Under the pieces are notes generated by a model, which was not told where the DNA came from, searched no databases, and saw only the letters and a program-made list of their open reading frames with translations. A program made the position numbers and the translations under genes. DNA of 64,000 nt from a virus, in UHGV virus genome UHGV-1366171; one strand, written 5' to 3'. Position 1 is the stretch's first letter, and each line of letters opens with the position of its first letter. Below are positions 12,115-12,536 of the stretch, piece by piece.

Positions 12115-12187
12115 GGGAATATAGCTCAGCCAGGAGAGCACATGACTGTTAATCATGTTGTCGAAGGTTCAAGTCCTTCTGTTCCCG
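12115..12187 (+). tRNA. tRNA-Asn (GTT)
   Basis: GGGAATA-TA-GCTC/AGCCAGGA/GAGC-A-CATGA/CTGTTAA/TCATG-TTGTC-GAAGG/TTCAAGT/CCTTC-TGTTCCC-G; 73 nt cloverleaf. Confidence 0.8.
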
Positions 12188-12189
12188 TT

Positions 12190-12300
12190 TTGGTTCTCAT
12201 ACAGCAGAATGAAGATGTGTCATTGGTTCAAGTCCAATCATTCCTGAAATGGAATGTCGCCCAGCTGGTAGGGCAATCTATTTATATTTTGAGAACTGTA
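12190..12300 (+). ncRNA. Y-RNA/YrlA-like RNA with circularly permuted tRNA-like module (T-arm, loop-capped acceptor stem, D-arm) enclosed by a terminal stem
   Basis: ATTGG/TTCAAGT/CCAAT + CATTCC/TGAAAT/GGAATG + TC + GCCC/AGCTGGTA/GGGC; closing stem GTTCTCA(12193-99)/TGAGAAC(12290-96). Confidence 0.5.
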
Positions 12301-12310
12301 AAAAACAGAG

Positions 12311-12397
12311 GTACGCAGCAACAGCAATGACTTAATGGCAAATGATTTGTATGCAAAACAAAGAAAATACGGTTCGATTCCGTGAAATATGCGTACT
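12311..12397 (+). ncRNA. tRNA-like element in canonical order (7-bp acceptor GTACGCA/TGCGTAC, T-arm ACGG/TTCGATT/CCGT, anticodon-like hairpin TTTGT/ATGCAAA/ACAAA), non-canonical spacing
   Basis: no recognisable D-arm; 6 nt between T-stem and acceptor 3' strand. Confidence 0.3.
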
Positions 12398-12419
12398 GTA
12401 AAAACAACTAAAAACCTAT

Positions 12420-12522
12420 GTAACGCCAAACAGCAATTTATTCGCTTAAAAAAGCATATTGGTTCAACTCCAATCGTATCCGTGGAGGATATGCCCTAGT
12501 GGTCAAGGGAAATTGGCGTAAT
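12420..12522 (+). ncRNA. second Y-RNA/YrlA-like RNA with permuted tRNA-like module, immediately upstream of the vWA gene RBS
   Basis: ATTGG/TTCAACT/CCAAT + GTATCC/GTGGA/GGATAT + G + CCCT/AGTGGTCA/AGGG; closing stem TAACGCCAA(12421-29)/TTGGCGTAA(12513-21). Confidence 0.5.
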
Positions 12523-12536
12523 GAAAGGAGATTTTT

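Follow-up and report, generated by a model that had tools for sequence, protein, structure and literature searches.

A tiled array of tRNA-like RNAs beside a gene for a predicted Ro60-fold protein: a candidate variant of the Ro60/Y RNA ribonucleoprotein in phages

Introduction

Knowledge of Ro60 and of its Y RNAs goes back decades. True Ro60 binds the Y RNAs encoded next to it in bacteria and in phage phiLo (PMC4201824, PMC12135203). The bacterial YrlA RNAs (Rfam RF02553) are expected on the strand of a Ro60 (TROVE) orthologue and no further than about 4 kb from it, and the motif GNCGAAN0-1G near the YrlA 5' end was proposed as the contact of Ro60 (PMC4201824). In the Deinococcus radiodurans Rsr/Yrn1/PNPase complex (RYPER; PMC4201824), the Y RNA is docked on the Ro ring by one of its ends, and its other module tethers PNPase. 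Escherichia phage Bas63 gp130 was reported to be structurally Ro60-like, to be encoded directly upstream of tRNA genes and to counter the 'ppl' defence, and its authors suggested that some of the annotated tRNAs may be Y RNAs (PMC11482910).

Here, a locus in a window of 64 kb (the whole stretch of viral DNA that was analysed) is described and compared with these systems. It resembles YrlA/Rsr (RF02553, PMC4201824) in that an RNA of ~110 nt, in which a long end stem encloses a T arm, a capped acceptor-like stem and a D arm without an anticodon arm, is encoded on the same strand as and beside the gene of a protein predicted to be a ring of HEAT repeats with a vWA domain; a second, less tRNA-like Y RNA is also often present in the known system, which likewise occurs in phages. 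It differs in that the partner is a DUF2828/DUF7788 protein rather than a TROVE/vWA_Ro60 one, GNCGAAN0-1G is missing and a UGUGA-type stem followed by CAGCAA stands instead, the Rfam score is under the cutoff (43 versus 69 bits), the arrays reach seven units by strict count (five in the window), and in many units an anticodon-loop-like or plain hairpin takes the place of the T/acceptor/D body. Thermus phage phiLo (PMC12135203; PDB 9KOP, 9L5Y) is alike in encoding a Ro60-fold protein with two Y-like RNAs, Yrl1 and Yrl2, just upstream, whereas its Ro60 is annotated as TROVE and is 15-17% identical to the window protein, and its Yrl RNAs were found via the CGAA motif and were not described as tRNA-like. 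The likeness to RYPER is one of concept; a gene for an Rv2179c-like exoribonuclease lies before the array in one related locus (L173) and is absent from this position in the window. No description of a pairing of DUF2828 proteins with handle-bearing RNAs was found in the searchable literature.

Layout of the array

Five small structured RNAs and one tRNA-Asn are tiled almost gap-free over 11981-12527 of the plus strand, in the same orientation as the Ro-like gene, and the array extends to the RBS of that gene. From 5' to 3' they were named U-1 (11981..12045; model R2 and RNAfold), U0 (12045..12113; model R1, with the handle in the minimum-energy fold), tRNA-Asn with anticodon GTT (12114..12188; ARAGORN and Rfam tRNA), U1 (12190..12302; Rfam YrlA, RNAfold and covariation), U2 (12307..12403; model R2 and a partial Rfam tRNA match) and U3 (12418..12527; model R1 and RNAfold). 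The RBS AAAGGAG (12524..12530) was read from the sequence itself, with ATG at 12537, and the gene for the Ro60-fold protein (12537..13991, plus strand, 484 aa) was assigned by Pfam DUF2828 and DUF7788. R1 and R2 are covariance models; the seed of R1 consisted only of sequences of the U1 type and held no U3 sequence, and that of R2 was built without any window sequence.

A sequence-only reading of this DNA had listed two modules, corresponding to U1 and U3. That inventory was incomplete, since the units at 11981-12045, 12045-12113 and 12307-12403 were overlooked, as was the CAGCAA handle that is shared by all five. In this handle the 5' and 3' ends are paired in a stem of 8-10 bp, and the 5' strand leads into a single-stranded (A)C[A/U/C]GCA[A/G] motif. 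The family was defined by a terminal stem plus CAGCAA, or a one-base variant of it, 0-4 nt after the 5' strand; both features were found in all five window units, with one-base motif variants in U-1, U0 and U1 (3/5). Other occurrences of CAGCAA with a stem in the window were dismissed as chance, lying inside coding sequence and being unmatched by R1 and R2.

The canonical tRNA-Asn that the same reading had placed against its first module is genuine, being called by ARAGORN (12114-12188) and by the Rfam tRNA model (69.2 bits at 12115-12187, cutoff 29). Its gene does not encode CCA, and it is bordered without spacers by U0, whose 3' end is the start of the tRNA, and by U1. In related loci this slot is occupied by tRNA-Lys (L176) or holds no tRNA (L173 and L174). 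A promoter/terminator scan found no terminator-like site on the plus strand between the units and the gene and located no clear promoter there, the scan being uninformative for promoters. At gathering thresholds, Rfam returned only tRNAs and RAGATH-18 from the whole window, and DNA similarity to GenBank phages was confined to the coding region and the tRNA. Small ORFs overlapping 12109-12685 were judged spurious because they cross the tRNA and the structured RNAs.

Circularly permuted tRNA bodies in U1 and U3

The core of U1 (12222-12274) consists of a T arm at 12222-12238 (AUUGG/UUCAAGU/CCAAU), a capped acceptor-like stem at 12239-12256 followed by a UC linker, and a D arm at 12259-12274 (GCCC/AGCUGGUA/GGGC), all on the plus strand. 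It is enclosed by the handle (UGGUUCUCA at 12191-12199 paired with UGAGAACUG at 12290-12298), behind which the motif CAGCAG (12202-12207) and an inner stem (AGAU 12213-12216 with AUCU 12276-12279) are situated. The capped stem forms a hairpin that is closed by a loop of 6 nt. T arm, capped stem, D arm and terminal stem were all present in both the minimum-energy and the centroid structures of RNAfold. U1 is a circularly permuted tRNA body without the anticodon arm.

In U3, whose core spans 12458-12509 (plus strand), the handle pairs UGUAACGCCAA at 12419-12429 with UUGGCGUAAUG at 12513-12523 and contains one A.A mismatch, where 48 of 49 family members have a G-C pair; its inner part is ACGCCAA 12423-12429 with UUGGCGU 12513-12519. 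The handle is followed by the motif CAGCAA (12431-12436), a small hairpin (about 12444-12455), the T arm (12458-12474), the capped stem (12475-12493) and the D arm (12494-12509; CCCU/AGUGGUCA/AGGG), with a spacing of 0-1 nt from capped stem to D arm, versus two in tRNA. The D arm ends 15 nt before the RBS, as had been stated for the second module as a whole; the terminal stem reaches 12523, directly against AAAGGAG (12524), and the 3' tail of the unit enters the RBS. The same junction, the 3' strand of the handle and then (G)AAAGGAG, was also found in other lineages.

The Infernal search with the Rfam YrlA model, which had been proposed as a check, gave a divided result. U1 was aligned over the full model (1-114) with 43.3 bits (E 3.9e-8 in a 901-nt search), below the cutoff of 69, and its homologues in L001 and L002 scored 31-41 bits; U3 gave no match at E up to 10. 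Judged strictly, the units fall outside Rfam YrlA, on account of the sub-cutoff score and of the missing GNCGAA motif of Ro60: the sole match to GNCGAAN0-1G in 11951-12540 lies inside tRNA-Asn, and the aligned position of U1 reads GUUCUCAUAC. U3 was detected by R1 with 28.7 bits (E 2e-4 in the 64-kb window).

Comparative evidence was obtained from homologous loci, and every helix was found to covary, as had also been proposed for checking. RNAalifold, run on a structure-blind MAFFT alignment of 15 homologues, recovered all four elements unaided (terminal stem, T arm, capped acceptor stem, D arm), and compensatory double changes occurred in 17 of its 22 pairs. Among 39 R1 hits, in an alignment that was fitted to the model, 88.7% of the cells were paired versus 38-44% after sliding the partners, and both sides vary in 26 of 27 pairs. 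A compensatory change in the D stem is seen in the U3 homologues of L009, L173 and L176. The YrlA-like order of T arm, capped acceptor stem and D arm that had been read from the letters is borne out by the full-length sub-threshold Rfam match, the structure-blind RNAalifold result and the covarying helices, and the enclosure of both modules by a terminal stem formed from their flanks by RNAfold and RNAalifold. The two are not independent copies, as had been supposed, because their T arms differ at only 1 of 17 bases. Folding energy by itself is weak evidence for the units: the z-score was -2.66 for U3 and -1.4 to -1.7 for U1, and four of the five window units folded no better than shuffles.

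Adjacent real tRNAs can imitate the T-then-D order, and a false positive of this kind was recognised in the R1 hit at L018:3244-3365; Chen et al. caution against the same pitfall (PMC4201824). A dimeric-tRNA artefact was considered for U1 and rejected, since tRNA-Asn owns a separate T arm and the hairpin that forms U1's capped stem is closed.

Other tRNA-like interiors in U-1, U0 and U2

The remaining units, also on the plus strand, carry other interiors on the same handle. In U-1, GUUACGUCA at 11984-11992 pairs with UGGCGUAAU at 12031-12039, the motif variant CCGCAA lies at 11994-11999, and the interior is a hairpin of 5 bp with a 7-nt loop (AUGA CCCCUAA UCAU, about 12007-12023), the stem sequence of which is that of the anticodon arm of the neighbouring tRNA-Asn. 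R2 detected U-1 with 22.2 bits (E 0.0017 for the whole window), and both handle and hairpin are in the minimum-energy structure of RNAfold.

In U0, the handle (AUGUUUCCUG at 12045-12054 with CAGGAAAUGU at 12103-12112) is followed by the variant CUGCAA (12057-12062) and by the hairpin UAUAA UUUGGGA UUAUA (12074-12090), whose 7-nt loop is identical to the anticodon loop of the prophage's own tRNA-Pro(UGG) at 19027-19100, the letters of the latter being taken from the Rfam tRNA alignment. U0 was detected by R1 with 21.2 bits (E 0.013), its handle is in the minimum-energy fold, and it is kept in L001 and L002.

In U2, GGUACGCA at 12310-12317 pairs with UGCGUACU at 12390-12397, and the motif is doubled (CAGCAACAGCAA, 12316-12327). 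The interior follows the normal tRNA order, minus the acceptor stem, with a weak D-like region, an anticodon-like hairpin (UUUGU AUGCAAA ACAAA) that is also weak and is missing from the minimum-energy fold, and a T arm (ACGG UUCGAUU CCGU, about 12368-12384). It was detected by R2 with 19.3 bits (E 0.0099 for the whole window) and is conserved in L008, L174 and L178 with a covarying T stem. As a tRNA it matched the Rfam model only in part (19.7 bits, model positions 8-63, cutoff 29), was not called by ARAGORN and lacks a cloverleaf with a 7-bp acceptor stem. U0 and U2 have the weakest model scores (E about 0.01), and the stems of their anticodon-like hairpins are weak A-U stems, for which RNAfold does not draw the 7-nt loops.

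The Ro-like protein

The units lie on the same strand as, and directly next to, a gene whose product is Ro60-like only by predicted fold. The 484-aa protein consists of a helical-repeat N-terminal part (DUF2828) and a vWA domain (DUF7788) with an intact MIDAS (D293-x-S295-x-S297, T358 and D390), and none of these five residues varies across alignments of 45 and 60 sequences. Its predicted full-length fold matches that of Ro60, in which a ring of helical repeats is closed by the vWA domain; the sequence-only reading had likewise called the gene Ro60-like. At the sequence level, the Pfam families TROVE (PF05731) and vWA_Ro60 (PF25045) did not match the window protein, only DUF2828 and DUF7788 being found, and Ro60 was not recovered by phmmer and profile searches of PDB sequences. 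A single-sequence AlphaFold model of the protein (pLDDT 43) was uninformative.

Of 50,697 phage records, 710 hold homologues, and Felix-O1-like, Listeria P100-like, Staphylococcus, Campylobacter, Vibrio and mycobacterial phages are among them. DUF2828 genes are located inside phage tRNA clusters.

The handle family in other phages

In 80 viral loci with homologues at 35-88% identity, the density of CAGCAA was 4.7/kb in the 250 nt upstream of the gene and 3.1/kb just downstream (57 sites immediately past the gene end), versus 0.2-0.5/kb elsewhere and 0.05/kb on the antisense strand. Of the CAGCAA sites in the flanks, 39% are enclosed by a stem of 8 bp or longer within 100 nt, versus 0-8.5% for composition-matched hexamers. 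When 49 units were aligned without regard to structure, both sides varied in 8 of the 10 handle pairs (e.g., UA 26/GC 18 and CG 27/UA 21), and the handle sequences of the wider family read UGUGA.../...UCAUG or UGGGA.../...UCCUG. All 94 R2 hits, from 82 phage loci (80 from IMG/VR, Halena and REP11), are on the strand of the gene, and the units lie within about 1 kb of the DUF2828/DUF7788 gene in the window and family-wide. In the reverse direction, the exact handle pattern gave 79 matches in all IMG/VR, 66 of which have a same-strand DUF2828 homologue 75-573 nt away; these 66 are not independent, because many of them share a single sample and lineage. The handle accompanies DUF2828 genes, on their strand only, in phages of Firmicutes, of mycobacteria and of the Felix-O1-like group, and this CAGCAA handle is the real signature of the family.

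The interiors vary on this constant handle, and cargo is swapped even among loci whose proteins are 83-97% identical. Anticodon-loop-like hairpins were found in 35 of 153 short units versus 1.1 expected from shuffles. Under strict criteria, up to seven tandem units with differing interiors occur per locus, and 37 of 160 loci, about a quarter, are free of units.

In mycobacteriophages, SEA-PHAGES records carry the annotation 'Ro-like RNA binding protein' (Halena gp52, LeBron gp53), whereas the neighbouring RNAs are unannotated. Halena gp52 belongs to the same family as the window protein (36.6% identity over the full length, DUF2828 plus DUF7788), and three CAGCAA units follow right after its gene, the middle one of which is YrlA-like (39.8 bits versus Rfam YrlA). 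The DUF2828 protein of Felixounavirus REP11 holds the same position as gp130 of Bas63, likewise a Felixounavirus; the comparison was made via the REP11 sequence, in which four units lie among tRNA genes by the DUF2828 gene. Whereas the RNA partner was not identified in Bas63 (PMC11482910), candidate partners are defined here, and those of REP11 occupy unannotated gaps between tRNA genes rather than annotated tRNAs.

Mycobacteriophage ET08 gp220 is a true TROVE Ro60, with TROVE and vWA_Ro60 Pfam matches, and the Y-like RNAs upstream of it bear GNCGAA-type motifs (GGCCGAG in the first, GCCGAAGG in the second) and no CAGCAA. As judged from these sequences, handle type tracks protein family, GNCGAA going with TROVE and CAGCAA with DUF2828.

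Discussion

The array is probably a new variant of the Ro60/Y RNA ribonucleoprotein, composed of five modular RNAs, each with a constant handle and a tRNA-like cargo, together with tRNA-Asn. We infer that the handle, as a candidate docking motif, replaces the GNCGAA Ro60 site of YrlA. Each cargo would be a copy of some tRNA part: U1 and U3 hold the T arm, capped acceptor stem and D arm of the YrlA design, U-1 and U0 an anticodon-stem-loop-like hairpin, and U2 a T arm, possibly with an anticodon-like hairpin. Array and tRNA would be made as one precursor, in which tRNA-processing enzymes would cut the spacer-less borders of tRNA-Asn and other nucleases the A-rich linkers. The handle would then be the docking site of the Ro-like protein, in the role that the GNCGAA bulged helix has for true Ro60, and the resulting particles would show tRNA look-alike surfaces to tRNA-binding factors, so as to tether or sequester enzymes of modification or processing, nucleases, or effectors of host defences that target tRNA. 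Binding of the protein may also feed back on the translation of its own gene, which is proposed because the last handle abuts the RBS.

This last feature is also an argument for reading the units as cis-acting elements of an mRNA leader that let the protein, or a signal related to tRNA, govern the translation or stability of the Ro-like mRNA. The meeting of the U3 handle with the RBS, the recurrence of the handle-AAAGGAG junction in other lineages and the lack of a plus-strand terminator or clear promoter between units and gene agree with it, but units are found downstream of the gene as often as upstream, as the 57 CAGCAA sites just past the gene end indicate; all three Halena units are 3' of the gene, Felixounavirus units lie amid tRNA genes up to about 1 kb past the gene end, and up to seven tandem copies with differing interiors exceed what a leader needs. 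A leader role for all units is unlikely, though the last unit alone could have such a role alongside free RNAs.

Much less probable is an origin of the units as decayed tRNA genes or as spacers of tRNA clusters, that is, duplication remnants or maturation leaders and trailers, unrelated to the protein. The location of DUF2828 genes within phage tRNA clusters, the tRNA pieces in the interiors and the ability of neighbouring real tRNAs to mimic the T-then-D order (L018:3244-3365) would fit such an origin. However, the larger tRNA cluster of the window (17743-19101) has no handle unit by R1 or R2, the handle predicts a DUF2828 gene less than 600 nt away in 66 of 79 collection-wide matches, and the helices covary instead of decaying; the capped stem of U1 is closed by its 6-nt loop and is not made of two tRNA ends, and tRNA-Asn has its own T arm.

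Permuted tRNA genes are known from the red alga Cyanidioschyzon, and split or permuted genes whose products are processed and ligated into functional tRNAs would account for T arm, joined acceptor strands and D arm in permuted order, but this explanation can be practically discarded, as U1 and U3 carry the long CAGCAA-bearing handle in place of an anticodon arm and the stem at the acceptor position is loop-closed, without free 5' and 3' acceptor ends.

With the ribonucleoprotein variant preferred, the locus points to a second, sequence-distinct branch of the Ro60/Y RNA design, which occurs in phages much more often than true Ro60 appears to and has its own candidate docking motif, and in which cargo, including anticodon-loop look-alikes, is exchanged like cassettes. 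It offers a concrete candidate RNA partner for a protein whose only annotations are "RNA-binding" or "DUF2828", occurs in phages of E. coli, Salmonella and Mycobacterium that are amenable to genetics, and would add an RNA family missing from Rfam 15. A more tentative suggestion, less likely than not, is that DUF2828 proteins and handle RNAs form a widespread phage system, in which interchangeable tRNA parts (the elbow-plus-acceptor body, or the anticodon stem-loops of particular tRNAs) are shown on a common scaffold to decoy, sense or redirect host defences that target tRNA, e.g., anticodon nucleases, or tRNA-processing enzymes. The units supply a candidate RNA side for the anti-defence phenotype of Bas63 gp130, and the display of tRNA parts, if true, would explain why that protein counters a defence system and would represent a new class of RNA-based anti-defence.

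Permuted tRNA-like modules and the unit array

The sequence-only reading had described a tRNA-Asn followed by two permuted tRNA-like modules, and all three were borne out. The tRNA-Asn(GTT) is genuine, being located at 12114-12188 by ARAGORN and scored at 69.2 bits by the Rfam tRNA model. Both modules (cores 12222-12274 and 12458-12509) were present where they had been placed, with all helices contained in the RNAfold minimum-energy and centroid structures. In module 1, the T arm (12222-12238) is followed by a hairpin-capped stem (12239-12256) and, after a UC linker, by the D arm (12259-12274); the module is closed by pairing of UGGUUCUCA (12191-12199) with UGAGAACUG (12290-12298). 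The T arm (12458-12474), capped stem (12475-12493) and D arm (12494-12509) of module 2 are closed by ACGCCAA (12423-12429) and UUGGCGU (12513-12519). Folding energy by itself is weak evidence, with a z-score of -2.7 in module 2 and of -1.4 to -1.7 in module 1; covariance models give stronger evidence. Module 1 was aligned, at a permissive threshold, to the full Rfam model (1-114) of YrlA, a tRNA-like bacterial Y RNA (RF02553), with 43.3 bits and E 3.9e-8; the anticipated Rfam match was thus full-length, but under the curated cutoff of 69 bits. A covariance model built here from five module-1-type sequences (R1), with module 2 absent from the seed, recovered module 2 at 28.7 bits (E 2e-4) when the entire window was searched.

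Three further units were found by R1 or by R2, a second model built from short units, so that 11981-12527 is tiled nearly gapless by five units and the tRNA-Asn. The order is U-1 (11981-12045; R2, 22.2 bits, E 0.0017), U0 (12045 to about 12113-12115; R1, 21.2 bits, E 0.013), tRNA-Asn, U1 (12190-12302; module 1, with the sub-cutoff YrlA match), U2 (12307-12403; R2, 19.3 bits, E 0.0099) and U3 (12418-12527; module 2), followed by the RBS (12524-12530) and the ATG at 12537. A repeat, ACUGUAAAAA(A)C, was observed 3' of U1 and U2 (12296-12305 and 12396-12406, respectively); it comprises the handle 3' end and an A-rich linker, where processing could take place.

Covariation of the tRNA-like body

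R1 gave 39 matches at E < 0.01 in 99 sources, all 39 on the strand of the gene. In the alignment of these matches, 88.7% of cells were paired (38-44% with slid partners), both sides changed in 26 of 27 pairs, and the covariation score was 0.48 versus 0.07-0.09 for slid partners. Because this alignment was fitted to the model and hence leans toward it, RNAalifold was run on 15 homologues aligned by MAFFT without regard to structure, and it predicted terminal stem, T arm, capped stem and D arm unaided, with compensatory double changes in 17 of 22 pairs. The permuted stems are thus conserved in homologous loci in a structure-blind alignment, and the YrlA-like topology is supported by the full-model Rfam alignment, R1 and RNAalifold together. 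Dimeric tRNAs are a source of false positives against which Chen et al. (PMC4201824) warned, and one R1 match (L018, 3244-3365) was rejected as two adjoining real tRNAs; the modules in the window do not belong to this class.

The handle and its CAGCAA motif

Comparison of the regions upstream of homologues of the downstream gene showed that each structured element opens with a stem strand running directly into (A)CAGCAA; this end-to-end terminal stem is termed the handle. In 80 viral loci (proteins 35-88% identical), the density of sense-strand CAGCAA was 4.7 per kb over the 250 nt that precede the gene and 3.1 per kb immediately past the gene end, against 0.2-0.5 per kb elsewhere and 0.05 per kb on the antisense strand. 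Across 160 loci, 39% of extragenic CAGCAA sites had, within 100 nt, an enclosing stem of 8 bp or more without interruption, versus 0-8.5% for composition-matched hexamers. The handle stems vary in sequence yet stay complementary (UGUGACGCU/AGCGUCAUG, UGGGACGC/GCGUCCUG, UGUGAUCCGG/CCGGAUCAUG, UAGAUGAUU/AAUCAUCUA). When 49 short units, none of them from the window, were aligned by MAFFT blind to structure (the alignment from which R2 was built), 8 of 10 handle pairs showed changes on both sides, and the structure was 83% paired versus 29-51% with slid partners. For the reverse test, the exact handle pattern TGTGAYGCNTACAGCAAW was scanned over all IMG/VR, and a DUF2828 homologue was contained in the fetched stretch for 66 of the 79 matches (66/66 on the same strand, 75-573 nt from the handle), many of the matches coming from one sample and thus not being independent.

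Exchangeable interiors

In relatives with proteins 83-97% identical, the last unit keeps its handle (CCUAUGU[A/U]ACGCC..ACAGCAA...GGCGUAAUGAAAGGAG) and differs in its interior, the cargo. The window shares with L009, L173 and L176 a cargo of T arm, capped stem and D arm; that of L008 and L171 is a T arm and hairpin, that of L175 a T arm only, and that of L174, L177 and L178 plain hairpins. The tRNA-Asn position is taken by tRNA-Lys in L176, and no tRNA-Asn is present in L173 and L174. Anticodon-type hairpins (stem of 4 bp or more, most often 5; 7-nt loop with U at 2 and a purine at 6, typically CU-NNN-AA) were found in 35 of 153 units too short for a tRNA, where shuffles gave 1.1, and their five pairs covary in the 49-unit alignment. 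In the window, the loop of the U0 hairpin (UAUAA-UUUGGGA-UUAUA) is identical to that of the prophage's tRNA-Pro(UGG) at 19027-19100, the U-1 hairpin (AUGA-CCCCUAA-UCAU) uses the anticodon-arm stem sequence of tRNA-Asn, and U2 combines a T arm with a weak, Cys-like hairpin of the anticodon type, the handle standing in for the acceptor stem. The U0 and U2 hairpins, both weak and not predicted as 7-nt loops by RNAfold, are suggestive only.

A second tRNA cluster (17743-19101, + strand) contains Gln, Met, Thr and Pro genes by ARAGORN, the Gln gene being unusually long (91 nt), and an extra tRNA (18188-18270) detected by Rfam alone, at 48.7 bits; no handle units were found in this cluster. About 3 kb beyond it, a RAGATH-18 RNA (RF03064) was detected at 22102-22176 (+) with 62.2 bits, above its 44.9-bit cutoff.

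The Ro-like protein and its surroundings

The ORF at 12537-13991 (484 aa) matches Pfam DUF2828 and DUF7788, with only a weak vWA_2 match, and belongs to PHROG 850 "RNA-binding protein". Pfam gave no TROVE match, and Ro60 was not found among PDB sequences by phmmer or by a 45-sequence profile. The AlphaFold model from the single sequence was useless; that with a 60-sequence alignment reached pLDDT 85.4 and pTM 0.81, and its top seven Foldseek matches in the PDB were all Ro60 proteins, namely those of Thermus phage phiLo (E 6.6e-8, TM 0.57-0.61), Deinococcus (Rsr), Xenopus and human. The gene, which had been called Ro60-like, is therefore so as a predicted fold, not as a sequence family. The vWA metal-site residues D293, S295, S297, T358 and D390 are invariant in homologue alignments. 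A 575-aa DUF2828/DUF7788 protein (P0121) carries an extra PF01912 match missing in the other listed members.

The exact protein carries an NCBI name from Blautia hydrogenotrophica, and neighbouring genes match phage families (terminase small subunit, DNA invertase); by this gene content, the region resembles a prophage. A serine-recombinase invertase gene (10789-11388, +; PHROG 125, Pfam Resolvase) lies just 5' of the array, and a weak terminase-small-subunit match (9574-10203, +) shortly 5' of it; these genes place the locus near the prophage packaging end. In L173 (Ro-like protein 87% identical), an Rv2179c-like 3'-5' exoribonuclease gene (308-886) is directly 5' of the array, an arrangement reminiscent of Deinococcus, where Ro60/Y RNA tethers an exoribonuclease; in the window, this position is occupied by an unrelated 172-aa ORF without a family match.

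Breadth among phages

By tblastn, homologues were found in 710 of 50,697 GenBank phage records, including Felix-O1-like coliphages, Salmonella phages, Listeria P100-like phages, and Staphylococcus, Enterococcus, Campylobacter, Vibrio and Aeromonas phages, together with 95 mycobacteriophages, in which they are annotated "Ro-like RNA binding protein". Three CAGCAA units without annotation lie after the gene of mycobacteriophage Halena gp52 (DUF2828 and DUF7788), and the second of the three is a permuted tRNA-like RNA (YrlA 39.8 bits, R1 47 bits). In Escherichia phage REP11 (Felixounavirus; L169), four handle units (CAGAAGACC...CAGCAA...GGUCUGG) at 4705-5505 occupy unannotated gaps between annotated tRNA genes 3' of the DUF2828 gene, and the last (5370-5501) has the permuted design, with 32 bits in R1. 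Mycobacteriophage ET08, the phage example in Figure 1D of Chen et al. 2014 (PMC4201824), has a true TROVE and vWA_Ro60 protein and two upstream Y-like RNAs with GNCGAA-type motifs and without CAGCAA. Handle type and protein family thus go together. Some annotated phage tRNAs beside DUF2828 genes may be handle RNAs in which the handle replaces the acceptor stem. An ARAGORN 'tRNA-Ile(GAU)' in L018 (1383-1485) lies wholly within a CAGCAA handle (UGUGAUGCUU...AAGCAUCAUG).

Probable working and relation to known systems

The units would be co-transcribed with the tRNA-Asn and the Ro-like gene; no + strand terminator was found between units and gene, and the promoter of the array was not located. 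Release at the spacer-less tRNA-Asn borders could proceed by RNase P and 3' tRNA-end processing (e.g. RNase Z), with other nucleases cutting in the A-rich linkers. The CAGCAA handle, which sits where YrlA has its proposed Ro60 contact, GNCGAA (PMC4201824), would be the docking site of the Ro-like protein, and the cargo may tether or sequester tRNA-binding factors. Because the last handle abuts the RBS, autoregulation of the gene is possible. That the units are protein-partnered, Y-like small RNAs is held with fairly good confidence, and any specific downstream function with much less.

A Ro-type ring protein with an adjacent Y RNA and a tRNA-like module is a known design (PMC4201824, PMC12135203). 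Two papers bear on function. In a preprint, Bas63 gp130 is reported to be structurally Ro60-like, to be encoded directly upstream of the phage's tRNA genes and to counter "ppl" defence; the authors speculated that Y RNAs might be among the annotated tRNAs (PMC11482910). In a separate screen, LeBron gp53 (472 aa, as long as Halena gp52), annotated "Ro-like RNA-binding protein", was moderately toxic on overexpression (PMC13148394). The topology of YrlA is shared by the window modules, but its Rfam cutoff is not reached, GNCGAA is lacking, and the neighbouring protein is Ro60-like in predicted fold and not TROVE by sequence; the units were therefore not filed as YrlA. A full-text literature search found no description of DUF2828-associated handle RNAs, though they may have been described before.

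The original observation is confirmed, and its interpretation is supported and extended by three more units and a common handle. The RNA family is conserved, strand-specific, covarying and physically linked to a Ro60-fold protein family, with a constant handle and exchangeable tRNA-like cargo, and the window RNAs are probably Y RNAs of a variety distinct from YrlA, with DUF2828 proteins as their partners.
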